Below, one piece after another: positions 11,017 to 62,802 of a stretch of 64,000 nucleotides of DNA. The stretch spans positions 672,001 to 736,000 of the forward strand of contig JAFATB010000014.1 of the NCBI GenBank assembly GCA_019244185.1. The letters run 5' to 3'. The notes under the pieces were generated by a model. The model was not told where the DNA came from and did no database searches. It saw only the letters and a program-made list of their open reading frames with translations. This DNA comes from Acidobacteriota bacterium. GTDB taxonomy: Bacteria > Acidobacteriota > Thermoanaerobaculia > Gp7-AA8. A program made the translations under genes and the position numbers. Within the stretch, counting starts at the first letter, position 1. Each line of letters opens with the position of its first letter.

Positions 11017-11042
11017 CCCGGCCCGCCCCCCGCACCCCTCGA

Positions 11043-38472: not shown

Positions 38473-39276
38473 TCATTCGCGCACGATCTGGTACGCGATG
38501 AGAATGACACCGACGACAAACAATGCACATGCCGCGGCGACTGAGGGGATCTCCGGCGGCCGATGGCCTTTGACAATTTCGTACAAGCTCGAAAAGGCCC
38601 CGCTCAGGAATGCGCCGCCGAGCATGCCGCAGAGGGCGTGCAACTTACGGCGTCGTTGCCGCGCGATGTTCTTCACCGCCATCGTTACGTAAAAACCCGA
38701 GATCGCAGGCGCGTCGTGCCGACGCATCACGCCGACGCATTCCATGAGGAGGTCGTGAATGTACCGGTCGACAGAATCATGAAAGGCGCTGAGGCCGTCC
38801 GGTGCAAACGGCGAAACCGGAAGATTGCGCAGCTGCTTACGCGCCGCTTCGGTGATCGTGGGATTCGTGATGCCAAGAGTCATGTCCCTGCTTCCTTCCT
38901 GTGCGAGACCCGCCGCTCCGATTGCGCGCCGGTAGACGTCTTTCGTCTGCCGCTCCAGTGCTTTCAGCATGGTCGAAGCGCTTCGTCCAGGCGTGTTCGC
39001 GAGCAACCGCGCGACCGCCGTGATGAAGCCGGCGAGAATGGCGATGAGGCTCACGGTGAGCTCGCGTTCGAATGTGAGGGCGAACATGCCAGCGACCGAG
39101 ACCGCCCCGGTAAGTGCGGTGGCGATGGTGACCGTTACGCTCAGGACGAACCGTGACGCCGACGAATCACTCTCAATCATTTTCTCGACGCGGCGATAGA
39201 CCTCAGCAGCACTGAGATTGTTCGCGCGCAGACGACGAAGCTGCTCCAGGAGCTCTTCCAGCGTTTTTCTGTTCAC
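38473..39276 (-). CDS. Four-TM membrane protein with a central histone-fold-like segment
   Basis: GTG 39276 overlaps the upstream stop; two hydrophobic pairs flank FAPDGLSAFHDSVDRYIHDLLMECVGVMRRHDAPAISGFYVTMAVKNI. Confidence 0.55.
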   Translation of the reverse strand: MNRKTLEELLEQLRRLRANNLSAAEVYRRVEKMIESDSSASRFVLSVTVTIATALTGAVSVAGMFALTFERELTVSLIAILAGFITAVARLLANTPGRSASTMLKALERQTKDVYRRAIGAAGLAQEGSRDMTLGITNPTITEAARKQLRNLPVSPFAPDGLSAFHDSVDRYIHDLLMECVGVMRRHDAPAISGFYVTMAVKNIARQRRRKLHALCGMLGGAFLSGAFSSLYEIVKGHRPPEIPSVAAACALFVVGVILIAYQIVRE

Positions 39277-40124
39277 ACGCGTCCCTCGAGAGATTCCTGG
39301 TCGGCCTTGTAGTCGAGCAGCCGCTGCGGGACCGTGGTTCCGAAGCGATAGTTGGACGGGTTGTCGCCGCAACGATCGAGTACGGCACGCCAGAAGGTCT
39401 TCAATTCATGGACAGGTGGACGAGCCACGCGCTGTCCCGACGTCGGCACTGTCGGCAGAATCGCAGTGACACTTGCACCGTTTAGTTGCAGCAACGATAC
39501 GGGCGGGAGCGCGCGGGCCGCGGCGATTTCGCGTTCGATGGAGGTCTTCTGCAACTTCACCGGCTTGTGCAGCAGCGAATCGCCGCAGTCTTCGAGCATG
39601 TCGCTGACCACCACGATCTCGGCAGCGGTGCCTGGTTCCGTAATTTCTTCCGCTTTGCGGAATGCGCCTGAGACGCATGTGTGATTCCGGCCGTCGGCCG
39701 GCCCGGCAAGTAATGTTCTCAGTTTGTCCGCGACGTCCCGGCTCCATTTCGCGCGCGCCATATCGACGGCTACGGCATCGCTCGTAGTCTGAATCTGCGG
39801 CAGTTGGTCATTGAAGACGGCTCCGGCGCGCTGCACGTCTTCAAGCAGGGGAAACACGTACAAGTGAGCGCCTGTCGGTAGGAGACCGATGATCGTTTGT
39901 ACGTTGGCAATGACCGACGCCTGTTCCTGCGGCGTAAGACTGCGGGTGACGTCTGCAAAGACGATGAACAGACGCGGTGATGCCGGTGTTTCGACCGATC
40001 CGGCCGAGGAGGACGCGGACGGTGCCATCGCTGCGTTGCTGCCGGTTGATGTCGTCGGCTGCTTACCGCCGCAAGCGATGACGACGGCGACGACGACGAG
40101 GCTCAGCGCGGATCGCCGAATCAC
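39273..40124 (-). CDS. Lipoprotein with vWA-like domain
   Basis: Lipobox VVIAC; FIVFADVTRS (DxTxS), HTC and IVVVSDMLE MIDAS-like elements. Confidence 0.65.
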   Translation of the reverse strand: MIRRSALSLVVVAVVIACGGKQPTTSTGSNAAMAPSASSSAGSVETPASPRLFIVFADVTRSLTPQEQASVIANVQTIIGLLPTGAHLYVFPLLEDVQRAGAVFNDQLPQIQTTSDAVAVDMARAKWSRDVADKLRTLLAGPADGRNHTCVSGAFRKAEEITEPGTAAEIVVVSDMLEDCGDSLLHKPVKLQKTSIEREIAAARALPPVSLLQLNGASVTAILPTVPTSGQRVARPPVHELKTFWRAVLDRCGDNPSNYRFGTTVPQRLLDYKADQESLEGRV

Positions 40125-41344
40125 GATGACGTTCTCTCCTGGACTGGTGCTGCAGTTTCGCTGAAGTGACGTTCGGCGACGCCGAGCCTACGTTTCAATG
40201 CGACCTGAATGCGCTCGTGCAACCGTCGCCCGTCATGCAACGTCTCCGGGACGAGAACGCCTCTCAGGAATCCTTGTTCGTAAAGGCTCATGGCTACGGC
40301 CTCAACGCGTCCTGCGTCGAGTTGAGCTGCCGCGGCAGCCTCGTTTTCGGCGCTTTTCACGAGGGCCTCGGTCTTCCGCGCTTCGGCCATCAGCTCGTCC
40401 GCAGCGGATCGCGTCTCTCGACAGCTCTTTCTCAGGACGCGATACCGATTGATGTTCTGAATGCGACTCCAGCCGACGGACGCACAGATGCCGCCGATGA
40501 TCGGCAGCGTCAGCGTCAGCAGCACGAACGACATTCCGGCGTCTCTCTGCATCTTTGCGGTAAGGCCGACGACGTCGGCGGCCATGCCGTTCGTATCGGT
40601 TGCCGTCGCGCGCCGCGCTTCCTGCAGCGATTTAACGCCGGTGCGCAGTTCCGCGAGGTAGTAGAGATTCCACGTGACGAGCGTAATGAGCCCGACGACC
40701 ATGACGCCGGACACGATGCGCATCCAGAGCTTGTGCTGTAACGCCGGCTTGAAGAAGAAGTCCGCGACGAATTTGAAGAAGAGACCCAGCGCCGCGATGC
40801 CGATCGCGAAGGCGAGCGGTTCCCACATGGATCTCCAGTCCAGCCGGATCGAGTCGAGGTTTGCGAGTTTCGCGTAGTTCGTTTTGATCTCGAGACCATC
40901 GGCGGCGAGAAGCGAAAGCGGCAGATCTGCAATCCAAAGGATTGCCGCTACGACGCAGTAAACGACACCCAGAGGCCAGGAAAAACTTGCCGGACTGTCG
41001 AGACGGTGGCGCTCGAGCGCGATGAATCCCTCTTCGATCCGTACGGCGTCGCCGCGCGCCCGGTCGGCACGCTCGACGGCCGTGTGCATATCGGCTTTCG
41101 CCAGTTCGACGCGATGCGTCGTCGCTGCGCGTACTGCAGCGCACCACTGCTCGGCGCGATGACGGTAGACCGCTGAAATCTGCGGTGCGCGAACGCCGAG
41201 GCGACCGTCCGTCCAGCCCCGACGGTACTCCGCTTCACCGTACGAAGTCGGTAGCGGTTCACCCGAACTGTCATCGAAGCGTTCGTTGGTGTCGTTGCCT
41301 GCCAGTGGCCATGCGGAAACTTCATGTACTGTGTTGTCCGTCAT
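40121..41344 (-). CDS. Multi-pass membrane protein with flanking coiled coils
   Basis: About 4 hydrophobic segments between helical Ala/Glu/Arg-rich regions; ATGA/GTGA overlaps on both sides. Confidence 0.7.
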   Translation of the reverse strand: MTDNTVHEVSAWPLAGNDTNERFDDSSGEPLPTSYGEAEYRRGWTDGRLGVRAPQISAVYRHRAEQWCAAVRAATTHRVELAKADMHTAVERADRARGDAVRIEEGFIALERHRLDSPASFSWPLGVVYCVVAAILWIADLPLSLLAADGLEIKTNYAKLANLDSIRLDWRSMWEPLAFAIGIAALGLFFKFVADFFFKPALQHKLWMRIVSGVMVVGLITLVTWNLYYLAELRTGVKSLQEARRATATDTNGMAADVVGLTAKMQRDAGMSFVLLTLTLPIIGGICASVGWSRIQNINRYRVLRKSCRETRSAADELMAEARKTEALVKSAENEAAAAAQLDAGRVEAVAMSLYEQGFLRGVLVPETLHDGRRLHERIQVALKRRLGVAERHFSETAAPVQERTSS

Positions 41345-43356
41345 TTTTTCGTCCCTTCTGGGAGCGGAGGGGGAAGGGGTATCGCAAACCGGAGCGAGCG
41401 TGTGGCCGCCTCCTGAGAGAGAATCAGGAGCCGCAGTTCGTTCGCTCCTTTTCCCGCCCGCGCGATCAGTTCGGCGTCCTCGGCGGTGGACTCATCGACC
41501 CGTCCTTGCGTCTCTGCCAGTTCGCGGCGAAGTTCCTTTCGCCGTTCGAGTGAGGTCTCCCGTTCGATCTCTTCGATCTTGTTCGCGATTCGTTGTTTGC
41601 TCTCCTCCAGGCGCGAAATTTGACGTGACAGCTTCGTGATGGCCTCGAACAATTCGGGCGGCAAACCAGCGTCGAACGCCGCGAACTCGAAAGACGCAGT
41701 GAGCTGGGAAGTCTTCTTCCGCGATAACGGCCATAGGCTCACGGTGTACCAGTGTTTCTTTCCTGAGTTGCCGTTCGACATGCCATACCCGTTGCCGAGG
41801 CTTAGCGCGCGTTGAAACTTTTCAATACGCAAACGCTCGCGCGCGTAATCGGCGTCGATCTGGATCTGCCGTTGCAGCGCACGGCGGGAAAGCTGTGGTT
41901 GCTCGGGGCCGTACGTGTAGAAGCGGGTGTCAGCTTCAATTTCGCGCAAGCGCTCCTGCGTTTTGTCCACGTCCTTGTAAACACCTTTGTAGACGAGACC
42001 GTAGGCCAGCGACAGAGAGCCGAGAAGCATGAAAAGCATCCAGAGACCCCACCGCGCATCGCGCGCGAGGTACGCTGCCAACGTCACTGCGGCGATCAGG
42101 GCCAGCGGCGCGACCGCGAATTCCCATGAACTGCTGAAACTGCGGCCATCGTTCCGCGGCTCGATGATTTTGATCGCATACATCATTGTGACCGCGGCGG
42201 TGAGCATTGCGATCGTGCTTCCGATCGCCGTGTTGGTGAGGGTCGACAGTAAGTGACGGAAAACGCCCTGCTCCGTGCGGCCTGCGGCAACGAATGCTAC
42301 GATCATGCATCCCGCGAGAACGTAGGGTAGCGACGCGATCAGCCTGATGTATGAATGGCGCGTGATGTCGGCCTGGCCGAAATGCAGGCCTGGAATGGAC
42401 GTCGAGCGCCGTTCGAGTTTTTTCCATGAGTCGTAGAAACGGTGCATCAGCCAGTCGACACCGATCGTTGCGAATAGGAGTAAAAGGACGCATGCGAAAA
42501 GCAGCGTGAAAGGCGTCTCAAATCGTGACAGCGACTGGTTCGGTAAGTCCGCGAATGATCGGGCTGTCGTCAGCACCCAGTCGATGGTGAAGTCGTCATC
42601 GATCAATTGAGCAAATACTGCTCCGATTGCCGGAACGGAGGCGTATCCGACCCACGCCAGGAATCCTGCGAGAGTGCGGGTGATGAGGGCCGCGCTCAAG
42701 CGAGACGATCGCTGCTCGACTTCCTCTGCTAGTGTGCGCAGTTTCTCCGTCCGCGCTTTGAGCTCTTCGAGCTTTCGGGCACGACTCTCCGCCGCTGCCT
42801 CCCACGACTTTTTCCGCTCCTGAAATTCTCTGAGCGCGTCGCCATGGAGCCTGTCGCGAGCTTCCTGGCGCTGAATGTCGAGCTGCTGGATTTGAGCTGC
42901 AACTAGGGCCTGTGCGTTGGCCAACCGTTTCTCGTTGAGCTCTCGTTGGGCCCCGTCGAGTTGCGCCTGAAGGCCATCGAGCTCGCTGTCAATCCGCGCC
43001 GCCTCCGCGGAGTGCTCGCGGAGTTCCTCGGCGAGCGGCGTATGGACGGCCAGTTCTTCGTGAATGCGAGCCGCGTTTTGTAGAAGTTGTGAGCGTTCCC
43101 GATCCCCTCGAGCGATAATTGCAGCGCGTACGTTTCCCTCGATCGTCCTGACCCATACATCCATTTCGCGTCCATCCGACCCGCCATCGGGGAATGCCGC
43201 GCGGACGGTCGCTGCGTCGAGGACATCGTCGACCGTTACGAGGCCGGACGCCGGCCGTAGCAAGAGCACGGGCGTGCTTGCCGCGTCTTCTTTTGCGTCA
43301 TCGTCAATGTCCATCCTCTCCTCCGCCGGACGGCACTCTCTGCCTGCTACGGACAC
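41341..43356 (-). CDS. Coiled-coil multi-pass membrane protein
   Basis: Long N- and C-terminal heptad-rich regions around about 6 TM segments; start at 43356 or 43314. Confidence 0.7.
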   Translation of the reverse strand: MSVAGRECRPAEERMDIDDDAKEDAASTPVLLLRPASGLVTVDDVLDAATVRAAFPDGGSDGREMDVWVRTIEGNVRAAIIARGDRERSQLLQNAARIHEELAVHTPLAEELREHSAEAARIDSELDGLQAQLDGAQRELNEKRLANAQALVAAQIQQLDIQRQEARDRLHGDALREFQERKKSWEAAAESRARKLEELKARTEKLRTLAEEVEQRSSRLSAALITRTLAGFLAWVGYASVPAIGAVFAQLIDDDFTIDWVLTTARSFADLPNQSLSRFETPFTLLFACVLLLLFATIGVDWLMHRFYDSWKKLERRSTSIPGLHFGQADITRHSYIRLIASLPYVLAGCMIVAFVAAGRTEQGVFRHLLSTLTNTAIGSTIAMLTAAVTMMYAIKIIEPRNDGRSFSSSWEFAVAPLALIAAVTLAAYLARDARWGLWMLFMLLGSLSLAYGLVYKGVYKDVDKTQERLREIEADTRFYTYGPEQPQLSRRALQRQIQIDADYARERLRIEKFQRALSLGNGYGMSNGNSGKKHWYTVSLWPLSRKKTSQLTASFEFAAFDAGLPPELFEAITKLSRQISRLEESKQRIANKIEEIERETSLERRKELRRELAETQGRVDESTAEDAELIARAGKGANELRLLILSQEAATRSLRFAIPLPPPLPEGTKK

Positions 43357-43389
43357 CAGCCATTTCGCGAATGTGAGATGAACGCTGAC

Positions 43390-45138
43390 TCATGTTCGTG
43401 GACGGCGCGTGAGTCCTCGCACGAGCAGGCAGGCAGCGGCCGCGGATATGAAGATCGCAATCGCGATCCACGTCACTGGCGGCGTTTGTTCGAATGCGAC
43501 ATCCGCCGGCGTAAAGCAGACGTTGTAGGTCTCAGGGAGCAATGCGCGCTCCGCCGAGAGATGTAGGCGATAGCGTCCGGGTGCCGCCGCGCCCTCGATG
43601 TGCGCCTCCAACACGCCGTTGCGCACATGGAACGCGGCGCGGTTCGGAGTCAGGTGATCCTCACGATAGACCGCAAGACGGAGCCACTGCGGCGCCGGTC
43701 CCGTATCCAGTGAGTACCAGTCCACGCGGCGGCGCGCTTCGTCACGGCAATCGATCGCGATCCGCGTGGGCCATGTCCACATGCCCATGGCGACGGTGCT
43801 GGTGCGGAAGGCACGGACGCGACAGTCGATCCGCTCGGCAGGTGTAACGGTAAAGCCCGACCAGTGGTCGTGAAAGATCGCTAGTTCGCGGCCGTTGATA
43901 TTCCGCGTGGTGATCCGGACATCGGTCCAGTAGCGGCCGGCGCGATGACAGGCGATGGAATGTGCAACGATGAACGTAGCCGGTGCGGACGCACGCACTC
44001 GCACCATGGCCGTGGGAACATGCGCGCCTGCTGGCGTCACCAGCATTAGCGACAGAGAAAGAGGGTATTCCGGCAGCTCGAGCATCGGCGTGCCATTGCT
44101 GTCGACGAGTCGGTACGCGATACCGACCTCGTCATGCTGCCGCGGAGCGGTGCCGACGGACGGATACAGAAGCATCCCGCGCGCGAAGAACTGTTGAGAG
44201 AAGATCTTCACGTGCAGGCGCCCGGCGGGTACGCGGAACAACCATTGGCCCGGCGCCGGACGATGGACGGTCACCGCGACGAGTGTGTCTCCCAGATGTA
44301 CGCGTTCGACGCCCGCACTACTGTCGTTCAGCGGCCACAACGTGTCGGGCGCGTAGATGTCGACCCGTCCCGTGGGCTTGGATCGCGAGACGATGTCGAA
44401 CACAACCACATCAAGATAGGGCGCTACAACCAGCACCTCGGCCGATTCCGATGCGGCAGTCGTCGTATCGCTTTCGCGCGACGGAGCGCCGAGGATCGTT
44501 GTGAAGACGGAGTGGATTGCCCGCACCGCGGTGATGCGGTTGCGCTGTAAGGCGTGTACACGGTTGTGAGAAACGGATTGCCATAAACCTCGAGGCACAC
44601 CGCCATGGATGCCATTGAGCAAGAAAACATCGATCGTCGCCGGCCCGAGATCGGCGGCCGTCATGCGCAGCAACTCACATGAGACACATCGTCCGCCGGC
44701 GGGACGACCGTTGGGAATGCCATCTGTCACCAGTACAACTGCGCGGCGCCTTAGCGGGTCGTCCGGCAATGACGCCAGCAAGTCGCGTGACGTTTCGAAC
44801 GCGCCGACGAGGTTTGTCCGTCCGAGGTGCGTTCGAGCGGTCGCATCAATGACGCGCCGGATCCCTTCGTGGTCTCGAGCGACGACCGTGAAGGGGAGGT
44901 CGATGCGTACGGTCGTACCGAAACTGACCAATGCGAGCCGGTGCATGAGGTGCGATGTCGTCGCGCTGTGTGCGAGCAACTCGGCGGCGACGATGCTGAC
45001 CGTGGAGGAAATACCTGCAGAGTCCCTCGTGCTCGCTGACCGATCGATGAGCACGAGCAGATCGACACCGGCATCCGCGTACACGGCCCGACTGACCAGG
45101 ATCAGCGCGAGCAGTGTCGGGACGACGAACCTGGACAC
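43390..45138 (-). CDS. Exported vWA domain protein with C-terminal membrane anchor
   Basis: Signal peptide; DLLVLIDRSAS (DxSxS), GRTNL, VLVTDG; C-terminal WIAIAIFISAAAACLLV followed by basic residues. Confidence 0.8.
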   Translation of the reverse strand: MSRFVVPTLLALILVSRAVYADAGVDLLVLIDRSASTRDSAGISSTVSIVAAELLAHSATTSHLMHRLALVSFGTTVRIDLPFTVVARDHEGIRRVIDATARTHLGRTNLVGAFETSRDLLASLPDDPLRRRAVVLVTDGIPNGRPAGGRCVSCELLRMTAADLGPATIDVFLLNGIHGGVPRGLWQSVSHNRVHALQRNRITAVRAIHSVFTTILGAPSRESDTTTAASESAEVLVVAPYLDVVVFDIVSRSKPTGRVDIYAPDTLWPLNDSSAGVERVHLGDTLVAVTVHRPAPGQWLFRVPAGRLHVKIFSQQFFARGMLLYPSVGTAPRQHDEVGIAYRLVDSNGTPMLELPEYPLSLSLMLVTPAGAHVPTAMVRVRASAPATFIVAHSIACHRAGRYWTDVRITTRNINGRELAIFHDHWSGFTVTPAERIDCRVRAFRTSTVAMGMWTWPTRIAIDCRDEARRRVDWYSLDTGPAPQWLRLAVYREDHLTPNRAAFHVRNGVLEAHIEGAAAPGRYRLHLSAERALLPETYNVCFTPADVAFEQTPPVTWIAIAIFISAAAACLLVRGLTRRPRT

Positions 45139-45147
45139 GCTGAGTCC

Positions 45148-48120: not shown

Positions 48121-48125
48121 TCAGA

Positions 48126-50753: not shown

Positions 50754-50809
50754 GGTCGATTGGCTCCCGTGCATCTTGGACACGTCGGACCAGACAGATG
50801 TGAGACGCG

Positions 50810-53800
50810 TCAGTGCGCCGTCCAACGGCCTTGCGGATCGCCGGTCAGGGTGAAGGCTGCCCAGGCGGCCGGGCTGCGGAAGCGTGGATTCTTCAGCATC
50901 TCGCACTGTGCATCACGCAATGCCTCCGCGGCAGTGGCTCCGTGCAGGAGATGCTCGTAGAAGATCTTCATCAACGCTTCGGCGGCGTCATCGCCGATGT
51001 CCCACAGCGACGCGATGACTCCGGGTGTACCGCCATAGAGGAACGCTCGGGTAAGGCCGGTGATCTCATCGCCGCCGCTGCGGACGCCTGCCCCGGTGCT
51101 GCACGCAGACAGGACGACCAGATTGACGCCCGTGAGATCGACGTCAGAGAGGATCTCGTGAACTTCGAGATTCCCGTCCCGCGTCTTTGTCGGTGCGAGG
51201 GCGATACGGCTGAAGAGCGGATTTCGTGCGTCGTATTCACCGTGGGCGGCGATGTGTACCAGATCGTATTTGCCGGCCAATCCGTAGAGAAGTTCCTCAG
51301 TGGCCTCTTTGCCGAGGACCGGCTTCACGCCGAGAGCGCGAGCGATGTCTTCCGCTTCACGCTCTGCGCCCGGTAGCCGCTGCCGCTCCGATCCCGCGTC
51401 CGGATCTCCGAGGACGAGCGCGTGGCCCGTGACGGGGGACTCCTTCTGGCGAAGGAAGGCAATCGCGCTCGCGCTCGGCGCGTAAGTCAGGGTGTAATCC
51501 TGAACGAGATAGCGTTCGTTCTGAGGATTCTGGAGCGCGCCAAACGGCACATAATGCAAGACGCCGTGCGGGACGATCCAGACGCGTGTCGTACGGATGT
51601 ACGGCCGCACCGGCGCAAAGATCTTTGTGTAAAGTTCTCGAGCGTCAGCAGGCGGCGCGCATGGTGATAGCGGTGTTCCGCTGCGGCTTGCGGCCAGCAC
51701 ATTTGACCAGCAAAGCGCGCGCTGCTGATCGTTCCGATCGAACGGCAGTTTCACGTGCGTTACGTGGTCGCGATCGACGATCCATGCGTACGAGCCGAAC
51801 GGCGAGAGGAAATAGCTGACCAGCGTCGTGCCGGGGTCGAGCTGGTGCTGAACGTCACGTGTCGTCAGCGGTTCTACTTTAACCGTGGACGTGTACTCGG
51901 GATTTGCGGCTTTGAGACGGGTGAGCAATGCGCGATACCTGTCGCGGCCTTCCTGCAGATCCTTGTCGAGTTTGACGCTCGGCTGGCTGGCCCGCTGCTG
52001 TTCCCAGCGAGCGATGTTCAGGCGCAACGCTTCGGCCTCGGCAGCGAGAGGATCACGGCCGTGAGCCGGCTGGATTCGCGTATTGCCGATGACCTGCAGA
52101 AACGCACGGGCGCGAGCTCGCTCGGAGTACGCAAATGCCTCGTCTGAACGGCCGGCGCGGAGTAGTTGCTCGATGATCAGGTCAAAGTAAATTCCGCGGC
52201 CGCTGCCGAGATATCCGGCGAGCAATTCCTCGACCCGTACGTCATAAATTGTGCCTTCAATGGCCTTCGCGGCACGCTCGAGGTGTTCAATCGCGCCGCC
52301 TGCGTCTTGCTCCTTCCAATACGTGACGCCAAGGAGCGCCTCGTAGGAGGCCAGCAGATCGCCGTTCCCGCTTGCCTGGATTGCCTTTTGTAGCAGCTCT
52401 CGCGCAGCTTTCGTCTGATTTGTTTCCAGCAACACCTTGACGCGCGCCACGTAGGAGAGCGATGCGACGTTGGGAAGGGGAGCGGAACTGTCGAGTGGGC
52501 CGCTGGAACCCGGCATGCCACCGCGCATCCCGATGATGGCGAGCATCGCTTGCTCGGTATTCGTATCGAACATCAAGCCCTCGGCTTCCGCGGTGCGGAA
52601 AGCGTTGGCGAGTGTCTGCTCGGCGGCTGCCGCGCTTCCTTTGCCGGCCATGAAGGCCTTCACGGCCGCGATCGATTCGAGTACATCGCACGCGAGCGTG
52701 AAGCCGCTGCGATTCGCCAGTTCAATCCCGCGCGCCAACGCCTCGTTCGCGCTGTCGTCAGCGTCCATCAGCATGTAAACGTCGGCCAATATGCTCCAGG
52801 CAGAGGCCTCGAGATAAGGCAGCTTCGAGTTTTGAAACAGCCGGATGGACGTTTCCAGTTGGTTGGCGGCGGTGCCATAGTGGCCGCGCATCATGTTCAA
52901 GGAACCGAGATCCACGTAGACTGTTGCCTGGTCGCTGAGATTGTTCGCGGTGGTGGCCAGTTGCAGCGCTTCCTCCAGCGTCGTTTCCGTGTCCGTAAAA
53001 CGGCTGAAACGCAGGTATAGGTCTGCTCGGTCGGTCAGAACGTCGACCACGCGGTGGGCGTCGTTCGATGGCCGAACGATTTCCAGTGCCTTGTCGTTCC
53101 AGGCCAGCGCGTCATCGAGGTGCCCCCCCAGCACTTCCAACTCGGCGAGTTTGCCGTAGATGTGGACACGGGTGAGTTCATCGAGATTTCCGATACGCGG
53201 TAAGCCCGGCACGGCGTTCAGCGCCTTCTTGTATTCCGTCCGGGCATCGTCGAATCGCCACTGCCTCCTGCGGAGATCGCCAAAATGCTGTGCGATCGAA
53301 CTGTCGAGAACCCCGCCGAACATCTGCTGTAACGTCGTGGCCTTCGTCAATTCGCGTTCCGCTTCATCCAACTTGCCGCACTCGAGCAAAGCGGAGCCGT
53401 ATGCGTCCCGGGTCACCGCTTCGGCAAACATGAGCAAAATCGGTTTGAAGACTTCTGTAGATTCGTCGCCGAGTGAAGACAGCATGTTGGCCTGCTGACC
53501 GAACGCCGCGGCCAGTGCCTGAAGTGACGTCGTGGAGAATGGCTTGTCGGGCGCCGCGGCATCGGCCAGGTGCTTCAGCGCCCGCTCGGCTGCTGACGCG
53601 GCAGCGTCGTAACGACCTTCGTGGCTTTCGAGCGACGCGCGCATCCAAAGGGCGACCCAGGCGCCGAACGAATCGCCGATGGTATCGAAGGTCGTGATCG
53701 CTTCTTCCAGGTTCAGCCGTGCTGATGGCGCGTCGTTCATCGCCATGTCGGTGATGGCGAGCATGAGCGAAGCGACAGCTTCGTTGGGTCGATCGGCCTG

Positions 53801-53950
53801 CGCTCGATAAGCCTGCTGCGCGGCGATGATTTTGTCGCGCGCGGCGGCGGTTTGCCCGGCCACGATCATCGGGCCAATATTCGCGAGCCTGTCGTCGTTG
53901 GCCGCCGCAGGCGATGCCAGTAGCATGAAAACCACGAGGAGTCGTTTCAT
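50810..53950 (-). CDS. Exported TPR + CHAT protease
   Basis: Signal MKRLLVVFMLLASPAAA; ERARARAF, PHGVLHYVPF, VHIAAHG, VLSACSTG, ASLWDIGD and AWAAFTLTG. Confidence 0.92.
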   Translation of the reverse strand: MKRLLVVFMLLASPAAANDDRLANIGPMIVAGQTAAARDKIIAAQQAYRAQADRPNEAVASLMLAITDMAMNDAPSARLNLEEAITTFDTIGDSFGAWVALWMRASLESHEGRYDAAASAAERALKHLADAAAPDKPFSTTSLQALAAAFGQQANMLSSLGDESTEVFKPILLMFAEAVTRDAYGSALLECGKLDEAERELTKATTLQQMFGGVLDSSIAQHFGDLRRRQWRFDDARTEYKKALNAVPGLPRIGNLDELTRVHIYGKLAELEVLGGHLDDALAWNDKALEIVRPSNDAHRVVDVLTDRADLYLRFSRFTDTETTLEEALQLATTANNLSDQATVYVDLGSLNMMRGHYGTAANQLETSIRLFQNSKLPYLEASAWSILADVYMLMDADDSANEALARGIELANRSGFTLACDVLESIAAVKAFMAGKGSAAAAEQTLANAFRTAEAEGLMFDTNTEQAMLAIIGMRGGMPGSSGPLDSSAPLPNVASLSYVARVKVLLETNQTKAARELLQKAIQASGNGDLLASYEALLGVTYWKEQDAGGAIEHLERAAKAIEGTIYDVRVEELLAGYLGSGRGIYFDLIIEQLLRAGRSDEAFAYSERARARAFLQVIGNTRIQPAHGRDPLAAEAEALRLNIARWEQQRASQPSVKLDKDLQEGRDRYRALLTRLKAANPEYTSTVKVEPLTTRDVQHQLDPGTTLVSYFLSPFGSYAWIVDRDHVTHVKLPFDRNDQQRALCWSNVLAASRSGTPLSPCAPPADARELYTKIFAPVRPYIRTTRVWIVPHGVLHYVPFGALQNPQNERYLVQDYTLTYAPSASAIAFLRQKESPVTGHALVLGDPDAGSERQRLPGAEREAEDIARALGVKPVLGKEATEELLYGLAGKYDLVHIAAHGEYDARNPLFSRIALAPTKTRDGNLEVHEILSDVDLTGVNLVVLSACSTGAGVRSGGDEITGLTRAFLYGGTPGVIASLWDIGDDAAEALMKIFYEHLLHGATAAEALRDAQCEMLKNPRFRSPAAWAAFTLTGDPQGRWTAH

Positions 53951-53964
53951 AATCGCGCCTCACC

Positions 53965-56226: not shown

Positions 56227-56284
56227 GAGACACCTCCGTCAGGCGGAAGAGCGGATTGTTGGGGAAAGTGGCGGGTAGGCGCGC

Positions 56285-57334
56285 CTAATACTGGATCATC
56301 GGGCAGAGCGTGCGGTCGTAGATGCCGCGGCCCGGCTCGATGCGCAGCCGCGTCAGTAATTCCGACCGCAGCGTTCCATCGGGATCCAGCGTTCGCCACT
56401 CGACTGCCGGCTCGTCGCTGCTCGTTCCGGCGTGCGGAATAGGACGCGTCGCCGGAGGTGTCTGCGCGAGCTGGTAATACTCCTCGAAATGCGTCCCGGG
56501 CCCGGGCGTCGGCGGAATCTCGCCAGCGGTTGCGACCTCGAACGATGGAATGTTCAACACTGCCACTTCCACGACGCCATCGAGGGGTGTCAGGTGCATG
56601 GTGCGCGTCGCGCCGCCGGCGAAGTCCTTGGATATCAGTTCCACCGCGTCGCCGGGGACGCGGATCTCCGCCATCACCCAGTTGGCGCCCGCCTGCGCGT
56701 AAGGGCCGTTTTCCGTAGCGCCGAGGGCGCGGAAGTACAGCGGCTTCACTTTGCCGTCGATCCGCACGAGCGAATACGTGGAGATCTTTCCGCGATCGAG
56801 TTTCAGACGTGCGGCCACGATGCTCGGAGGCTGCGCGGAAAGCACGGAGGCATTCAGAGGACCGAGCGTAGGCGATACTTGGTCGAGCGATGTGACCCAG
56901 CTGAAATCGGACAATTCGCGCCCGTTCGATGGAACCGGTCGCAGCCCATTTGCGTCCGCGCCACGCGTTCCGCTCTGCAGCCAGAGCGGCGGATGCAGGC
57001 AGCCGTCGCTGGCATCGGGTTTGTGAACCGAGATGTCGCTGCCGGCGAGTTGCCATGCGGCGCCGCCGGCGAGCGCCTCCTCCAGCGCGTCGAGCGCCTG
57101 AGATTCCGATTTGTCGCTGTAGAAAAACGTTGCGACGGCAGGATCGCGGCGTTCACAACTCCCGGTGCAGCTTTGCGCGCGCGCCAGCAGGAACGGTTGG
57201 TGATGCGGAAGAGTCGTGCCGTCCGACGTTTGATATCCATGCGTATTCAATAGAACGACATTGAGCTCTTTCTGGTCGGCGCTCGGAATGAACGCGATCA
57301 TCCCACTAAAGAGAATGCGGAGAACGAAATCCAT
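56285..57334 (-). CDS. Hypothetical protein translationally coupled to the CHAT gene
   Basis: ATG 57334 overlaps the CHAT stop (ATGA) after GGAGAA; begins MDFVLRILFSGMIAFIP; about 349 aa. Confidence 0.7.
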   Translation of the reverse strand: MDFVLRILFSGMIAFIPSADQKELNVVLLNTHGYQTSDGTTLPHHQPFLLARAQSCTGSCERRDPAVATFFYSDKSESQALDALEEALAGGAAWQLAGSDISVHKPDASDGCLHPPLWLQSGTRGADANGLRPVPSNGRELSDFSWVTSLDQVSPTLGPLNASVLSAQPPSIVAARLKLDRGKISTYSLVRIDGKVKPLYFRALGATENGPYAQAGANWVMAEIRVPGDAVELISKDFAGGATRTMHLTPLDGVVEVAVLNIPSFEVATAGEIPPTPGPGTHFEEYYQLAQTPPATRPIPHAGTSSDEPAVEWRTLDPDGTLRSELLTRLRIEPGRGIYDRTLCPMIQY

Positions 57335-60300
57335 CAGTTTTCTCCTGTATGGTTGGGCCGAAACGGAGATGAAGCCTGCCCCACGATTTGGTATGGAGCC
57401 CACGCGAACACCCAGTGAAATCCGGCGTCGTCGTGCTTTCGTATCTGGATCTGCGCCAGCCGCAGCGCATCGTCGGCGTCGAGTCCGTCTCGGTAATATT
57501 GATGGAAGGCGACGAGCAACTCCTCGGACGGAGCATCGCCGACGTCCCACAGACTGCCGACGACGGCTGGGACGCCGGCGGTAATGAACGGTCGCACCAA
57601 CGGCGCGAGGCCTTCCGGGCCGATCGGTACACCTCCCGTGCTGCTGCATGCGGACAGCACGACAAGGCGTGTATGACCGGTCCGGAACCGGGTGAGTAAT
57701 TCCTGCGCGTCGATCGTGCTGAGGTGATCGTGCGAAGGCGCCAGCAGCATCAGCGAACGGAACGGCATTTCGGGCCGAGCGACCGCGTGAGCTGCGACGT
57801 GAACGATGGCCGCGTCGGGTGCCAGGTCGAAGAAACGTGGTGCGGTCGCGTCCTTGTCGACCAGGACTTGAACCGCGGGGGCATACAAAGGAGCGATACG
57901 GCGGACCTCACTACGGCCGCGCGGCAGCCGATCAAGACCGCGCGTGGCGTTGGACGGCACGAAAGCTGGGTCACCGATGAGTATCGCGGAACGGCGCCCG
58001 TCAACGGCGAGCTCACGGTCCCGTAATATCGAATAGATGTAAAGCGTTCCGCTTGCCGCGATCGAGAGCCGATGATTTTCAATCAGGTACGGGCTGTCGC
58101 CGTCGGATCGCAGGGCGGCGAACGGCAGCCCATGCATCGGGCCATCGGGACTGAACACGAGGCGGGCGTCAGCGGTGTGGGGAATGCTGGCCAACACTTC
58201 CAGCGGGCCGCTGACCAAGGCGTGGTGTACATCGCAGAGTGTCGTTTCGAAACCGTCGATGTTCTGTTCGCGGGCGTCCGCGCGCAGCTTGTCGTTCCAC
58301 GATTCGATCGCCTTTTTGTGCACCGGCAGCGTCAGCATCTCGAAGGTGCGCCGGGAGACGATCCATACATAGGTGCGATCGTCGAGAACGGAGTACTCCA
58401 ACAGGAACGTATCTGCTGGAAGGCTCGATTGGATTTCTTCGAGCGCCAGCGACCGGCCGTCGTGTGTCCAACGACGAAATGCCTGCGTGGTCAGGGTGTC
58501 GAGTTGCAGAACGAGATGGAGCGGCTCGTAAGCGCGCGCCTGTTCGGCGAACGTGAATGCTTCCTGTTTCCGGTTGTCATCCGCGAGAAGACGGATCAGT
58601 CGTTGATACGTTTCTTGGGAACGGGAGAAGTACGCGCTCCAGAATTCTTCGCTGCTTCCTCGCCGGCGGCGATCCAGCAGGCCATCCTCTTCGGCACGCA
58701 ATTCGGCAATCGCGGCTCGGAGATCGCGTTCGGAGTCGGCGCGACGATTCTCGTGACGAAATGCTTCCGCCCGTCCCATCAGCAGTTCCGCGCGAAACGT
58801 CCGAAAGGGCGTTTCGGACGCCAGCCGGAACGCATCGGTGAATGCGGTGACGGCCTGTCCGAACCTCTCTTCGCCGAGTGCCGCGTCCCCCTCGACTCCT
58901 TTGATGCGCGCCAGTAGCGCCTGGCGGACGCCCTGGTCGTCCTTCGCCGTGCCTTCGCTGATGAAACGGAACGCTTCGGACAGATCGCGGTCCGCTTGGC
59001 GGTAATCATTCAACCGGATGTGAACGGCTGCCATACCTCGCAGCGCGATGCCGAGATTGCGGTGCAAGGCGACGATGCGGTCGGAGTCGGTGGAAGGCGT
59101 TTCTGCGAGCCGATCCTGAAAAAGCTGAACTGCTGCTGTCTGGTAGAGCAGGGCGATCTTCGGACAGTCCAGAGCCGTTGCAGCTTCCGCGGTTTCGCCG
59201 AGGAATTCATGACGCGATGGCGCTTCGACGAAACGCGCCTGATCGCGGCTTGCGAGAAACGACTCGGTCCATGCTTGTTCGGGATCGCCGAGAGTTCGAA
59301 GGATGCCGATCTTTCGCGTGTGCGCATTCGCCACGTTTTCGGCGTCGCCCATCCGGGCGAAGGCTTCGATCGCCGCGTCATACCGATCGAGTGCCTCGAT
59401 GAAGCGGCTTTGGTAGGTATAGAGATACGCCTGATTGGAACGCGCGCGACCGAGGACGTACCAATAGTCGTTCGCATGTGCATGCGCTTCCACGGGCTCG
59501 AGTAAAGCCATCGCCTCGGCGAACTGGTTCCGAAACGAGAGCGCAATCGCACGGGCCATCGTGGCGCTGCACGCCAGTTCGCTTTTCGCGTCTGTGAGGA
59601 GTTGCTGCGCTCGCGCGAACGTACGTTCCGCTCGCTCCGCACCGATTGCGCGTTCGGTTCGTCTCGCATCCCCGTACGCCGCGTGACCGCGCCGGAGTCG
59701 ACCGAGCATCACTTCGTCCTTTGCGCGCTCGACCTCGTGAATGCGCTCGACGATCCTCAACAGATAACGGTCGCCCGTCCCGATAGTGAGGGTCTGCGCA
59801 ATCGCGTCTGCGATCGCCAGTTGACGTTGCGCGGTACCAGCATCACCGGACGCGGCTGCCGCCGCCCACGCCGGCAAAACCTCTTCCTCGACGTAACGGT
59901 GCGCCGCGCCGCGGAAGGGGTCGATGAGACTTGCGAGCGCCTTGCGGTCTCCCGCCGCGACGACGGCTTCGATGCGCTCTTGATTGCGCGGCCACTGCGA
60001 GGCTGCGGCTCTCGATGCATCTCGTCTCAGCGCGCTCCAGTGCTCGTCTGCCTCACGCGTCCAACCGGACCGAGAGCCGCGGCGCAACTGGTCCCATTGC
60101 TCCTCTGCTTCCTTCGGTAGACCGACTTGTTCGAGGGCGAGCGCACGGTTGAATCGCGCTTCGGTCAGTTGCGGGTCCCGCGCAATCGCCGCCTCTGCCG
60201 CATCGAGCGAGCGAAGAAGATCCGACGGCCGGTCGTCGCGTTCCGCGCGCAGTGCATAAGCGGCAGCGAGGTCGCTCCAGAGGCGTCCGGCCTGTGGCTG

Positions 60301-60666
60301 TTGTTCGGCGAGCGTTCGTAGCCGCCGGATTGCTGCATCGGTGCAACGTGGTGCAGCAACGAGTGTGCGAAGTGTTTCCTCGTGATTGCCGATCATGTCG
60401 TCGCAGTCTTTGCCGCCAACAGACACGGGTGCATTGGCAATGTGAGACGCGCAGGCCGCTTCCTGGACGATATGCCCGGGCCGGAGCGAAACAGTGCAGG
60501 GCGACCATTCCGGCGCATCGGTCAGCCGTGCCAGAGTGCGCCGCGCAGCGACCGGACGCCGTGGCGCGTTGGACGATACGTTCGTCTCGCGGCCGCACGA
60601 AGCGGCGACACACAGAACGAAGACGGTGGCGACTCTCGCCACGGTGGAACGCGACTTTTCGAGCAT
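57334..60666 (-). CDS. Lipoprotein TPR + CHAT protease
   Basis: Lipobox VAASC; EARFNRALALE TPR; PDGPMHGLPFAAL, VHVAAHA, VLSACSS, GSLWDVGD and WAPYQIVG. Confidence 0.92.
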   Translation of the reverse strand: MLEKSRSTVARVATVFVLCVAASCGRETNVSSNAPRRPVAARRTLARLTDAPEWSPCTVSLRPGHIVQEAACASHIANAPVSVGGKDCDDMIGNHEETLRTLVAAPRCTDAAIRRLRTLAEQQPQAGRLWSDLAAAYALRAERDDRPSDLLRSLDAAEAAIARDPQLTEARFNRALALEQVGLPKEAEEQWDQLRRGSRSGWTREADEHWSALRRDASRAAASQWPRNQERIEAVVAAGDRKALASLIDPFRGAAHRYVEEEVLPAWAAAAASGDAGTAQRQLAIADAIAQTLTIGTGDRYLLRIVERIHEVERAKDEVMLGRLRRGHAAYGDARRTERAIGAERAERTFARAQQLLTDAKSELACSATMARAIALSFRNQFAEAMALLEPVEAHAHANDYWYVLGRARSNQAYLYTYQSRFIEALDRYDAAIEAFARMGDAENVANAHTRKIGILRTLGDPEQAWTESFLASRDQARFVEAPSRHEFLGETAEAATALDCPKIALLYQTAAVQLFQDRLAETPSTDSDRIVALHRNLGIALRGMAAVHIRLNDYRQADRDLSEAFRFISEGTAKDDQGVRQALLARIKGVEGDAALGEERFGQAVTAFTDAFRLASETPFRTFRAELLMGRAEAFRHENRRADSERDLRAAIAELRAEEDGLLDRRRRGSSEEFWSAYFSRSQETYQRLIRLLADDNRKQEAFTFAEQARAYEPLHLVLQLDTLTTQAFRRWTHDGRSLALEEIQSSLPADTFLLEYSVLDDRTYVWIVSRRTFEMLTLPVHKKAIESWNDKLRADAREQNIDGFETTLCDVHHALVSGPLEVLASIPHTADARLVFSPDGPMHGLPFAALRSDGDSPYLIENHRLSIAASGTLYIYSILRDRELAVDGRRSAILIGDPAFVPSNATRGLDRLPRGRSEVRRIAPLYAPAVQVLVDKDATAPRFFDLAPDAAIVHVAAHAVARPEMPFRSLMLLAPSHDHLSTIDAQELLTRFRTGHTRLVVLSACSSTGGVPIGPEGLAPLVRPFITAGVPAVVGSLWDVGDAPSEELLVAFHQYYRDGLDADDALRLAQIQIRKHDDAGFHWVFAWAPYQIVGQASSPFRPNHTGEN

Positions 60667-60743
60667 CAGAACTCCCTGCGGATGGACCCTTGCCTCACGG
60701 CCGTCTTTACTGAGAGAAGGAGTTCGCTAATGATATTCGACGA

Positions 60744-61316
60744 ATGCACATCGGCGGCTGGAGTGCGGGCGGACGGATCCCTTCCTTCGAGGACTTGTAT
60801 CAGCGGTACTACCGTCGCGTCGTGTCGTACGTGATGAACTGCAGATTCTCACGCGACGATGCGCAGGAACTCACACAAGAGATCTTCATCCGTGTCTTAA
60901 CCCACATGGATACGTATCGGGGCGACTCCGAGTGGAACTTCATCCAGACCACGGCCCGCCGCCACGTATCCAACGAGATCCGGCGCCTCCACGCGAAGAA
61001 GCGCGAAGCCGTCATGTCTGCGGTTCACGAGCTGGCCCACGACCTCGAAGACAAGGCGCTTCCCGCGGATTTGAAGATCGAGCGGCATGAAGCGATGGCG
61101 GATCGGCAACGGAAGTTGCGAGCAGCGATCGCGCAGCTACCGCCAGGGAGCAGACATGCGTTTATCCTGCGGATGAAGGGGAAAACCTATAAAGAGATCG
61201 CGCACATTTGCGGGATCACGGACGTTGCGGCTCGGGCACGTTTCCACGAGGCTCGCGTCCGACTGAAGGCACAAGTCGGCGAGGACCCGCCGGGAGGCGA
61301 CGATGACAAAGAATGA
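60744..61316 (+). CDS. ECF RNA polymerase sigma factor
   Basis: FEDLYQRYY, DAQELTQEIFIRV, AIAQLPPGSRHAFILR..GKTYKEIA. Confidence 0.9.
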   Translation: MHIGGWSAGGRIPSFEDLYQRYYRRVVSYVMNCRFSRDDAQELTQEIFIRVLTHMDTYRGDSEWNFIQTTARRHVSNEIRRLHAKKREAVMSAVHELAHDLEDKALPADLKIERHEAMADRQRKLRAAIAQLPPGSRHAFILRMKGKTYKEIAHICGITDVAARARFHEARVRLKAQVGEDPPGGDDDKE

Positions 61317-62049
61317 TTGGCACGAGGCGGTGCAGGCGGTCTCGGATGCAGAACTGGCGTCCCTGGGTGAGCCGCCAACCGATGAGGAGGTGCTCGCCTT
61401 TTCGCGCGGAGAACTGACCGGTGTAGCGGAGGCGCGCGTTCGCGAGTACCTCGTCCATGTTCCTGAACTACTCGACGCGTTGACGGCGCCGTTCCCTCCC
61501 GAGGATGCTCCGTCTGTCCTAACGGACGCGGAGGTTGCAGGGGATTGGAAGCGGATACGTGCGCCGATCAAGCCGGCCCGCCCGTGGTACATCCGAAAAG
61601 GATGGGCGATCGCAGCATCCGTGACGGCACTCGCTCTGGGAGGCTTGCTCATGGAATCGCATCAGACGAATCGCAGACTCGAGCACGAGTTGGCGGAACC
61701 TCGCACGAATCTGGACAACCGTCTGCTCCTGCCCGATGGTGAGCGCGGCCTCGGCGAAGACCGAGCGGCGACGCTGCCGGGCGGCAACGCCGATTTCGTG
61801 TTTGCCGCAGCTCTCATCAACGCGCCACGGTACGACGCCTATGCCGTCGCGTTGCTGGATCTCGCGACCACGCCGTCACGGCTGCTGTACAGCGCCAATG
61901 GGTTGCGGCGCCATACGGACAACACCTTGACCATCTTCGTTCCGCGTGCCTTTCTCCCGGCCGGCCGCTATAGACTCGTGATTTACGGCCTCCAAGAGTC
62001 GCGCCGCGACGTCCTCGCTACCTACACGCTGCGAGTACCGCGCAACTGA
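61303..62049 (+). CDS. Putative anti-sigma factor (degenerate ZAS, single TM, C-terminal beta domain)
   Basis: PTDEEVLAFSRGEL...VREYLVHVPEL resembles ZAS without the Cys residues; TM WAIAASVTALALGGLL; overlaps the sigma stop. Confidence 0.7.
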   Translation: MTKNDWHEAVQAVSDAELASLGEPPTDEEVLAFSRGELTGVAEARVREYLVHVPELLDALTAPFPPEDAPSVLTDAEVAGDWKRIRAPIKPARPWYIRKGWAIAASVTALALGGLLMESHQTNRRLEHELAEPRTNLDNRLLLPDGERGLGEDRAATLPGGNADFVFAAALINAPRYDAYAVALLDLATTPSRLLYSANGLRRHTDNTLTIFVPRAFLPAGRYRLVIYGLQESRRDVLATYTLRVPRN

Positions 62050-62090: not shown

Positions 62091-62792
62091 TCAGTTGAAG
62101 AAGCGGATGAATGGATCGTCGCTCAAAAGCCACCCACCTACCACGCGTGTCGCCCAGATTGCTGCGAGCAGCATGACGGCGATGACCGTTGGGGCGAAAC
62201 GCTGCGGAATGTGCGCGAGCTGCGTGCAGCCCGTGAACAGAATCGACAGCATGTACGTCCATGCGAAGAGGCTCACCAGCGCCACCGTCTGGAAGTTCGC
62301 AATGCCCAGCAGCGCCGCGATGATGAACACGATACTGAATGGTTGAAGGGCCACCCCGCACGACAGCAGATCTGCTCCGAACGCGCCGTCGGCGCGGAAC
62401 GCCTTTCGAGCTCCGGCGCTGACGCCCGCCATCGCGGCAAACGGCACGAGTCCGACGACCGTCATGCCGAGCAGCAGCTTGGCGATGCCGTTGAACCCGA
62501 TGTGCGACGCGGTGATCGCGCTCGCGATCCCGACGGCTAGCGCAAATGCGACGCCGAGAGCGATGCCCGCCGCGCGGGCCCGCTCCTCGCCGAGCGTCGC
62601 GTACGACCTCGTCAAGCCGCCGATCGGATCCGAGGTGATCTGGCGAATCGCCGTGAATGCATCACCGGACGCCGACTGAATGATTCGCCGCGCATCGGCC
62701 GCTGAAAACACCGGCTGATTGGATTTGCCACAGTGCACGCATGCGGCCAGTGTGCTGCCTTCGTTCGCCATCCCACAATTTACACAGAACAT
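62091..62792 (-). CDS. Zinc-ribbon multi-pass (Yip1-like) membrane protein
   Basis: MFCVNCG...CVHCG followed by about 5 TM segments; GAGGAGG RBS. Confidence 0.7.
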   Translation of the reverse strand: MFCVNCGMANEGSTLAACVHCGKSNQPVFSAADARRIIQSASGDAFTAIRQITSDPIGGLTRSYATLGEERARAAGIALGVAFALAVGIASAITASHIGFNGIAKLLLGMTVVGLVPFAAMAGVSAGARKAFRADGAFGADLLSCGVALQPFSIVFIIAALLGIANFQTVALVSLFAWTYMLSILFTGCTQLAHIPQRFAPTVIAVMLLAAIWATRVVGGWLLSDDPFIRFFN

Positions 62793-62802
62793 TGTTTCCT
62801 CC

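Follow-up and report, generated by a model that had tools for sequence, protein, structure and literature searches.

The window analysed here is a stretch of 64,000 nucleotides from an Acidobacteriota bacterium (NCBI GenBank assembly GCA_019244185.1, contig JAFATB010000014.1, positions 672,001 to 736,000 of the forward strand), and our subject is a run of 11 co-oriented open reading frames (ORFs) on its minus strand (38473-60666; g01 to g11), together with a divergent gene pair for a sigma factor of the extracytoplasmic function (ECF) type and a putative anti-sigma factor. The run encodes two CHAT proteins, one caspase, two clear von Willebrand factor A (vWA) proteins, one tubulin-like GTPase of the Tubulin_2/FtsZl1 type, and five proteins without a Pfam family (Table 1). 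Stop and start codons of neighbouring genes overlap by 1 nt at 57334 and by 4 nt at 41341-41344, 40121-40124 and 39273-39276, the remaining gaps within the run are 58, 14, 56, 5, 9 and 33 bp, and 77 bp separate the ECF start at 60744 from the start of the oppositely oriented CHAT1 gene at 60666. ORFs, spacing and Pfam matches agree in this respect with the initial annotation, which had described the same layout from the letters of the DNA. Terminator-like sites in a sequence scan were at chance level (18 against 16.7 expected), with none in the gap at 50753-50810, and promoter-like sites likewise (4 against 3.6 expected). Our analysis indicates that the locus is a composite of three parts: a regulatory cassette (ECF sigma factor, anti-sigma factor, CHAT1 lipoprotein, g02 and caspase), a tubulin/vWA part (TPR-CHAT2, vWA_A, the tubulin-like protein and vWA_B), and a variable tail (g08-g11).

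Table 1. Features of the locus, in window coordinates (aa, amino acids; TM, transmembrane segment; AF2, AlphaFold2)
Feature	Position	Strand	Basis
ECF-type sigma factor, 190 aa	60744..61316	+	Pfam Sigma70_r2 2.3e-11, r4_2 1.6e-12; NCBIfam sigma70-ECF 82.6 bits vs cut-off 42.9
Putative single-pass anti-sigma factor, 248 aa	61303..62049	+	position, topology, sub-cut-off NCBIfam match
Divergent intergenic region, presumed promoter region, 77 bp	60667..60743	.	between CHAT1 and ECF gene
g01 CHAT1, exported lipoprotein, helical/TPR scaffold and CHAT protease domain	57334..60666	-	Pfam CHAT 1.8e-51
g02, 349 aa, unannotated beta-rich family	56285..57334	-	no Pfam family; AF2 model
g03 exported caspase (Peptidase_C14), C-terminal region of ~450 aa	53965..56226	-	Pfam 9.9e-23
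g04 TPR-CHAT2, exported protease	50810..53950	-	Pfam CHAT 1.6e-71, TPR_12 1.5e-22
g05 vWA_A	48126..50753	-	Pfam VWA 5.6e-12; start codon uncertain (50753, 50774 or 50906)
g06 cytoplasmic FtsZl1/Tubulin_2-type GTPase, 990 aa	45148..48120	-	Pfam PF13809 85.3 bits vs cut-off 27, E 6.3e-24
g07 vWA_B	43390..45138	-	Pfam VWA_2 1.3e-9
g08, coiled-coil, ~6 TM, coiled-coil	41341..43356	-	coiled-coil-type weak matches only (Pfam, PADLOC); hydropathy
g09, 4-TM protein	40121..41344	-	no family in Pfam, NCBIfam, PADLOC, PHROGs; hydropathy
g10 lipoprotein	39273..40124	-	no family in Pfam, NCBIfam, PADLOC
g11, 3-TM protein, last gene of the run	38473..39276	-	no family in Pfam, NCBIfam, PADLOC; hydropathy
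Zinc-ribbon multi-TM protein adjoining the anti-sigma gene	62091..62909	-	no Pfam family
Ser/Thr kinase gene start, cut by window end	63490..64000	+	Pkinase 2.6e-51 (continued in L171 = G000:C4:734001-744636)

The first two parts recur together in other genomes. A search with the tubulin-like protein, a member of a small subfamily, found 39 proteins, 35 of them with at least 90% query coverage and with identity down to 36%. Relatives were taken as one genome per species, which kept 80 of 108; among those kept only four loci (L002-L005) are close, two more (L006 and L007) matched over their full length, and a scan of metagenomes added L082-L087. In three of these loci (L003, L004, L007) the tubulin gene had been missed by the gene caller and was located by tblastn. 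Both blocks, as well as the ECF pair, are present in all four relatives' genomes with contigs that extend far enough, all of them acidobacterial, at 40-57% identity and in an order unlike that of the window, so that the recurrence of the two blocks, on which the initial annotation had made its proposal depend, is borne out, and the sigma/anti-sigma pair, which it had placed next to the operon, belongs to the conserved set. In two of these genomes (G431, G432) g02-like and CHAT1-like genes point one way and the ECF and anti-sigma genes the other; next comes a small TM gene of reverse orientation, and then, running with the ECF gene, caspase, TPR-CHAT2, vWA_A, tubulin, vWA_B, a small C14 protein and a 156-aa protein. 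The other two (G430, G433) hold the same genes, split over two contigs each. The association of tubulin/vWA genes with CHAT and caspase genes is limited to one clade.

What kind of switch does the cassette encode? CHAT1 carries a His-Cys pair (H960/C1007) that is kept in 3/3 orthologues, and the orthologues have a lipobox. A profile of the CHAT1 family (A5) matches the cryo-EM structure 8ROT (8rot_B) at E 2.5e-16, in two stretches with i-E (independent E-values) of 3.2e-8 and 2.1e-7 that together take in the CHAT domain and the post-membrane scaffold (query 48-236, DdvA 108-291); the identity of 8ROT as DdvA is confirmed in PMC11506125. The family profile is what reaches DdvA, the single CHAT1 sequence giving 0 matches against the PDB. 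As judged by profile comparison, CHAT1 is homologous to DdvA in the latter's periplasmic part; the accessible part of PMC11506125 describes DdvA as the anti-sigma factor of the ECF sigma factor DdvS in Myxococcus, controlling a CBASS-CRISPR island. The gene that we take to encode the anti-sigma factor overlaps the ECF gene by 14 nt. Its product has an NCBIfam anti-sigma match of E 3.3e-4, below the cut-off, a TM-like segment at about residues 100-118 by hydropathy, and then a C-terminal domain of ~130 aa outside the membrane; it has 0 Cys and is therefore not of the zinc (ZAS) type. Orthologues occur in 4/4 of the relatives' genomes, with E from 1.5e-25 to 2.8e-43.

ECF orthologues adjoin CHAT1 in L182-L185, and likewise in the further cassettes L201-L203, with the tight divergent arrangement of the two genes repeated in L182, L183, L184, L201, L202 and L203. 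Since the gap between them is only ~35-120 bp in these cassettes, the promoter of either gene has to extend into its neighbour. The window (60700-60743) and the same six loci have an A/T-rich box resembling TAnnAT a short way upstream of the ECF start. Boxes of the form GAC(C/A)C-N17-GTCTTT, seen by eye in L003 and L184, were rejected as a candidate, their spacing being different in the window. One of the further cassettes is a paralogous copy in the same genome as the window (L201 = G000:C4:103000-121000): a caspase (45% identical), a 148-aa protein, g02 (45%) and CHAT1 (37%) lie on one side, with the CHAT1 gene innermost, and diverge from an ECF gene, an anti-sigma gene, a gene for a thioredoxin-like and vWA protein (863 aa) and a Ser/Thr kinase gene. 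In another genome of the phylum (G393; L209:4271-9310) we found a fused, DdvA-type anti-sigma factor of 1138 aa, with zf-HC2 (HxxxCxxC), one TM helix and TPR-CHAT, whose gene sits behind an ECF gene; downstream come a gene of the g02 family and one for an M48-TPR peptidase.

The protein between CHAT1 and the caspase, g02, belongs to a sizeable family that tracks the cassette. With a g02 profile built from 3 sequences, 579 clusters (at 50% identity) match at E <= 1e-3, and 72 of them still do so at E <= 1e-30; the family is present in 10/401 genomes of a phylum sample, and Pfam matched 0/71 of the members scanned. In a scan with a hidden Markov model (HMM), a full-length CHAT1-family gene lies upstream on the same strand in 14/14 g02 matches (13 loci), directly adjacent in 13/14 and 2.9 kb off in the remaining one, and in 9/14 the CHAT1 gene has an ECF gene directly beside it. 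The AF2 model of g02 has a pLDDT (predicted local distance difference test) of 95 and a pTM (predicted template modelling score) of 0.94. In this model the N-terminus forms one of the beta-strands within the fold, and the signal peptide that the initial annotation had given to this protein falls away. Structure searches with g02 matched no solved structure: the best Foldseek row had E 3.8e-3 and probability 0.04, a wide VIA search returned 0/48161 chains at Z >= 2, which is unusually empty, a second look with VIA reached Z 2.3 at best, and the Atlas search gave no usable match.

The other two proteases of the run keep their catalytic residues as well. The catalytic His of the caspase is kept in 6/6 and its Cys in 5/6 of the aligned orthologues and paralogues, and g03 orthologues show weak matches to DUF4384. 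One relative has two tandem caspase paralogues, in one of which (L005:4836-7073) Tyr replaces the catalytic Cys, so that this paralogue is probably inactive. In TPR-CHAT2 the dyad H903/C950 is kept in 5/5, and Craspase CHAT proteins of the PDB (such as 7x8a_D and 8d9f_A) match it at E ~3e-6.

The centre of the second part is g06, flanked on both sides by a vWA gene (g05 and g07); the vWA_A gene lies upstream of the tubulin gene in L002-L007, L082, L084 and L085. A tubulin homologue of 46-47% identity also sits on short contigs (L086:377-3994 and L087), with an apparent N-terminal extension of ~270 aa, and in the 1.2-1.5 kb available upstream of it there is no vWA_A match. The T4 loop CGGTGAG (C151-G157) and the glycines G19/G20/G22 are invariant in 20/20 aligned tubulin homologues. 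The AF2 model of g06 (pLDDT 73.9, pTM 0.64) gives Foldseek top rows that are almost all FtsZ, tubulin or CetZ, and against CetZ, TubZ and tubulin it reaches Z 19-23 with about 300 of ~340 residues aligned; for CetZ 3zid_B the VIA alignment has Z 23.4 over 299 residues at a root-mean-square deviation of 4.2, covering model residues 10-868. Because the alignment runs from model residue 10 to ~870, g06 seems, on this model, to keep both domains of tubulin/FtsZ, with a helical insertion of ~300 residues (roughly 400-670) between them. FtsZl1 proteins are said, in the parts of PMC2875224 and PMC9871819 considered here, to lack a recognisable C-terminal tubulin/FtsZ domain. Residues 841-896 of g06 are invariant across 20 homologues, with pLDDT under 50, and this stretch may be a binding site.

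Both vWA proteins appear to face outward. By hydropathy vWA_A starts with a signal peptide, followed by a vWA domain in the periplasm and a beta-rich stalk; a first TM segment then leads to a cytoplasmic domain of ~125 aa, after which comes a second TM segment, and this C-terminal architecture is conserved even in the distant L006 and L007. In vWA_B a signal peptide precedes the periplasmic vWA domain, which has a metal ion-dependent adhesion site (MIDAS), and the protein ends, after a beta-rich region, in a TM anchor at its C-terminus. The MIDAS of vWA_A is intact, with DxSxS kept in 8/8, and that of vWA_B is kept in 6/7, with one DxTxS variant. A complex prediction for tubulin-like residues 660-990 with the cytoplasmic residues 712-836 of vWA_A (score 0.00, mark 0.32) says nothing either way.

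For all these proteins our export calls combine a reading of the N-termini, a hydropathy script and the lipoboxes kept in orthologues. On this basis g01 is predicted to be a lipoprotein and g03, g04, g05 and g07 to have signal peptides, while g06 has no hydrophobic segment. The predicted compartment is therefore the periplasm for all three proteases of clan CD and for both vWA domains, and the cytoplasm for the tubulin-like protein. A motif check of the 11 operon proteins turned up no Walker A motif, and neither Pfam nor NCBIfam gave a GTPase family, so that the earlier statement that no TRAFAC GTPase partner is recognisable here holds. The same is true of the absence of a named defence system: PADLOC-DB v2 matched no component set, its single generic matches being to a caspase (6.2e-22), TPR, BovA (8.9e-6) and coiled-coil LmuB/JetC-like models, with none for the tubulin and vWA genes. 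NCBIfam has no model naming a system for the operon proteins, and the sole PHROGs match is to the TPR region of g04.

The tail g08-g11 lies outside the conserved set: tblastn of the loci of the four relatives gave no match to any of its genes. We found 12 homologues of g08; it was not found in G430-G433, and in the sample of 401 genomes of the phylum its 2 matches are the window's own genome and one weak match. Homologues of g08 (59% identical), of the tubulin-like protein (72%) and of g02 (74%) each occur on a contig of 40683 bases, so the closest relative probably holds all three together. Two assignments of the initial annotation did not survive in this part of the run. The protein it had called a vWA lipoprotein, g10, has no match in Pfam, NCBIfam or PADLOC, and a weak lead from a single Atlas cluster, 10% of whose members have VWA_2 (feature score 0.93, TM scores 0.58/0.69), marks it as possibly a divergent vWA-like fold. 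The description of g11 as histone-fold-like likewise found no counterpart in those three collections. In the relatives the slot of g08-g11 holds a small C14-like protein of 344-434 aa (L003:14768-16476, L004:14743-16514, L002:9893-10927), followed in L003 and L004 by a 156-aa protein. The 3' end of the operon is thus a variable slot, and a variable 3' tail fits the effector-displacement criterion for conflict systems, as given in the portion of PMC7159879 covered here.

The region is probably a horizontally acquired island. Its G+C content is 61-63% inside the window and 60-65% from ~38.4 kb to at least 71 kb in window coordinates (continued into L171), against ~66-72% in most of the remaining window; as single figures, 62% stands against ~68%. 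An orthologue of the tubulin gene is found in 0/24 congeners, a count that includes the unpublished genome G024. A different, weakly matching Tubulin_2-type gene is present in 8/24 of them (L163-L170, in G003, G008, G013, G016, G019, G021, G023 and G024; frames of 828-1334 aa, E 1e-7 to 7e-5). Searches for tRNA genes and repeats at the island borders found nothing; three tRNA genes, Ser-CGA, Lys-TTT and Glu-TTC, lie far from the island (7657-7748, 10942-11118). Rightward the region of low G+C (62803-64000, L171:1490-9147) encodes an LppM/zinc-ribbon protein, the Ser/Thr kinase, an FHA-ABC transporter, a CsgG-like lipoprotein (3.8e-19) and a third exported TPR-CHAT protein (930 aa, CHAT 2.2e-49), ~1.5 kb past whose gene the contig ends. 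At the place of the zinc-ribbon gene next to the anti-sigma gene, L003, L004, L184 and L185 have small opposite-strand TM genes (199-232 aa) without tblastn similarity to it.

How could these parts work together? From them we infer a sequence of signalling steps, the substrates of the proteases, a contact between vWA and tubulin-like proteins, and an output. We propose, with confidence that falls somewhat short of even, that the locus is an imported island in which a split sigma switch of the DdvS/DdvA type is wired to a membrane-spanning vWA/tubulin-like machine. A periplasmic cue would activate the His-Cys site of CHAT1, and CHAT1 (or the caspase) would then clip the ectodomain of the anti-sigma factor, which would be the site-1 cut. 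The freed sigma factor would transcribe the divergent 11-gene operon. The periplasmic vWA proteins, anchored in the inner membrane, would couple through the cytoplasmic domain of vWA_A to the FtsZl1-type GTPase, while the caspase and TPR-CHAT2, in the same compartment as the vWA domains, would process the vWA proteins or their ligands. The output might be a GTP-dependent reshaping or breaching of the inner membrane, for defence (abortive infection) or for envelope repair. In a more specific form of this proposal the locus would be an immune system that keeps watch on the envelope, its effector arm being the FtsZl1 GTPase together with the vWA proteins: the DdvA-like periplasmic CHAT protease senses an invader or a breach of the envelope and frees the ECF sigma factor, and the induced, caspase-matured machine remodels or ruptures the inner membrane; we regard this form as rather unlikely.

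Several observations weigh against the proposal of a wired switch. The cassette occurs without tubulin/vWA_A genes in L201, L202 and L203, the vWA_A and tubulin pair occurs alone, without the proteases, in two proteobacterial loci (L006, L007), and 0/148 more distant Tubulin_2 loci have tblastn similarity to the CHAT or caspase proteins of the window; as both halves exist apart, their adjacency could be a matter of island clustering. The anti-sigma factor is recognised only by position, topology and a sub-threshold match, and it is without the zinc motif of DdvA. We found no common ECF-type promoter motif upstream of the CHAT1 or caspase operons, and no dyad in more than 3/10 sequences. The constant neighbour of g02, CHAT1, is exported while g02 itself appears to be without a signal peptide, a mismatch of compartments. 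The precedent, too, is unproven, since CHAT-mediated self-cleavage of DdvA is, in the accessible text of PMC11506125, the authors' proposal for the first step and not a demonstrated one. Finally, PADLOC matched no known defence system.

These points feed in different measure into the alternatives. The separate occurrence of the cassette, once in the very genome of the window, and of the vWA_A-tubulin pair would be expected if two or three independent systems stood side by side in a variable island, namely an ECF-protease cassette with its own regulon, a self-sufficient vWA_A and tubulin-like (and vWA_B) module, and an unrelated membrane set g08-g11. The differing gene order of window and relatives fits the same picture, as does the fact that the contigs of the g08 homologues match none of those listed for tubulin homologues, bar the one of 40683 bases. 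However, the same ten genes are neighbours in five genomes at just 40-57% identity, despite inversion and reshuffling, in the window they are packed into a single run in which gaps are short and stops overlap starts, and proteases and vWA domains are predicted to share the periplasm; we consider independence unlikely, if the most serious of the alternatives. For the initial annotation, which had proposed a candidate undescribed system here, the outcome is mixed: the joint set conserved in five genomes speaks for it, whereas the cassette is homologous to DdvS/DdvA, the halves occur apart, and g08-g11 stand outside the conserved set. Its suggestion of membrane remodelling or defence set off by proteases stays a conjecture.

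The intact, outward-facing MIDAS sites would suit exported vWA proteins that are adhesive or matrix-binding, matured by the proteases, positioned by a tubulin-like filament and induced through the ECF factor on envelope stress, so that the locus would serve envelope biogenesis or a surface structure. The nearby CsgG-like lipoprotein and FHA-ABC exporter, and the failure of any known defence model to match, are consistent with such a role, as is the membrane remodelling that Makarova and Koonin favoured for FtsZl1-vWA operons in the text of PMC2875224 covered here. Yet a patchy, island-like distribution, a variable 3' tail and a cassette homologous to the module controlling a phage-defence island in Myxococcus are not what we would expect of it, and we think this reading quite unlikely. 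Composition would favour another reading, in which the locus is a degenerate member, now without GTPases, of the GAP1-N2 GTPase-centric conflict systems (tubulin theme, Kaur et al. 2020): the tubulin theme, in the portion of PMC7159879 at hand, combines a tubulin-like protein with a C-terminal helical/coiled-coil region and two vWA proteins, of which one is multi-TM and has its vWA domain facing outward. That source describes the theme as restricted to Firmicutes and Actinobacteria, though, and the operon has neither a Walker A motif nor a GTPase or FNIII (Pfam) family match, which makes this derivation highly improbable.

The locus matters on several counts. To our knowledge FtsZl1 proteins have had no assigned function since their description in 2010, and here, in five genomes, one FtsZl1 subfamily goes together with a regulatory cassette whose relative in Myxococcus turns on genes of phage defence. 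Were the effector-arm form of the proposal true, it would give the FtsZl1 family its first function, and it would be a bacterial parallel to the coupling of an outside receptor, a protease and the cytoskeleton. The two-domain model of g06, as a predicted structure, bears on whether FtsZl1 proteins can polymerise. And the split form seen here, the fused form in another phylum than the one first described, and the constant partner family g02 suggest that DdvA-type sensing is wider than reported.

Parts of the locus resemble systems already described. What is already known is the FtsZl1-vWA pairing (2010), tubulin with two vWA proteins in GTPase-centric systems (2020), and DdvS/DdvA (2018, 2024); we found no paper that joins these, with the limit that contexts in the neighbourhood tables of Kaur 2020 may have escaped. 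The protease domain of TPR-CHAT2 resembles Csx29, the TPR-CHAT protein of the type III-E Craspase (NCBIfam NF041237, E 6.6e-12, 45 bits), but 45 bits is far under the cut-off of 300, and the protease here is exported; no Cas family was found in the 15 proteins scanned with Pfam, PADLOC and NCBIfam. The partner on which Craspase acts is itself connected with an ECF sigma factor. Caspase/TRADD-N/EACC-type systems are proposed, in the accessible part of their 2021 description (PMC8195603), to signal through autoproteolysis; the caspase model of the EACC type (NF047832) was matched weakly, at 57.5 bits against a cut-off of 140, and unlike those systems, as far as that source describes them, the operon has no detected TRADD-N or EACC domains.

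Closer in composition are the two groups of tubulin-like systems. PF13809 corresponds to the FtsZ-like group of Makarova and Koonin (PMC9871819), and like the FtsZl1-vWA operons of PMC2875224, so far as its covered parts describe them, the window has a helically extended Tubulin_2/FtsZl1 protein beside MIDAS-intact vWA proteins with signal or TM segments, with a kinase gene nearby. It differs from those operons in having no OmpA-like or GTPase partner; caspase and CHAT go unmentioned in the main text and supplements of PMC2875224, and sigma in the supplements. With the GAP1-N2 systems, as presented in the covered part of PMC7159879, our locus shares a tubulin-like protein and two membrane-proximal vWA proteins in mobile, variable neighbourhoods, but their TRAFAC-class double GTPases were not found here and the lineage differs. 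For fn3 there was no Pfam match at E <= 0.01 in the operon proteins, the beta-rich stalks of g05 and g07 being judged by sequence alone.

The nearest relative of the cassette is DdvS/DdvA. In both, an ECF gene stands beside a protein with the periplasmic scaffold and CHAT domain of DdvA, the His-Cys dyad being present here; in both, an unknown protein and a clan-CD peptidase follow in the operon, and the context is island-like. The order in M. xanthus, given in the available part of PMC11506125 as DdvS, DdvA, unknown protein and C25-type peptidase, parallels ECF, anti-sigma factor plus CHAT1, g02 and caspase in the window. The census in that paper, in the portion considered, has Myxococcota and one Comamonas only, and its table S7 is without an acidobacterial entry. 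Besides the phylum, the neighbours differ, being vWA and tubulin-like genes here and CBASS or CRISPR there. DdvA is one polypeptide, with a zinc anti-sigma domain, a TM segment and TPR-CHAT, whereas in the window the anti-sigma factor (248 aa, 0 Cys) and the CHAT1 lipoprotein are the products of separate genes. Judged by homology, then, the cassette of the window is a split relative of DdvS/DdvA, in which a short, zinc-free putative anti-sigma factor is paired with a lipid-anchored, DdvA-like protease.

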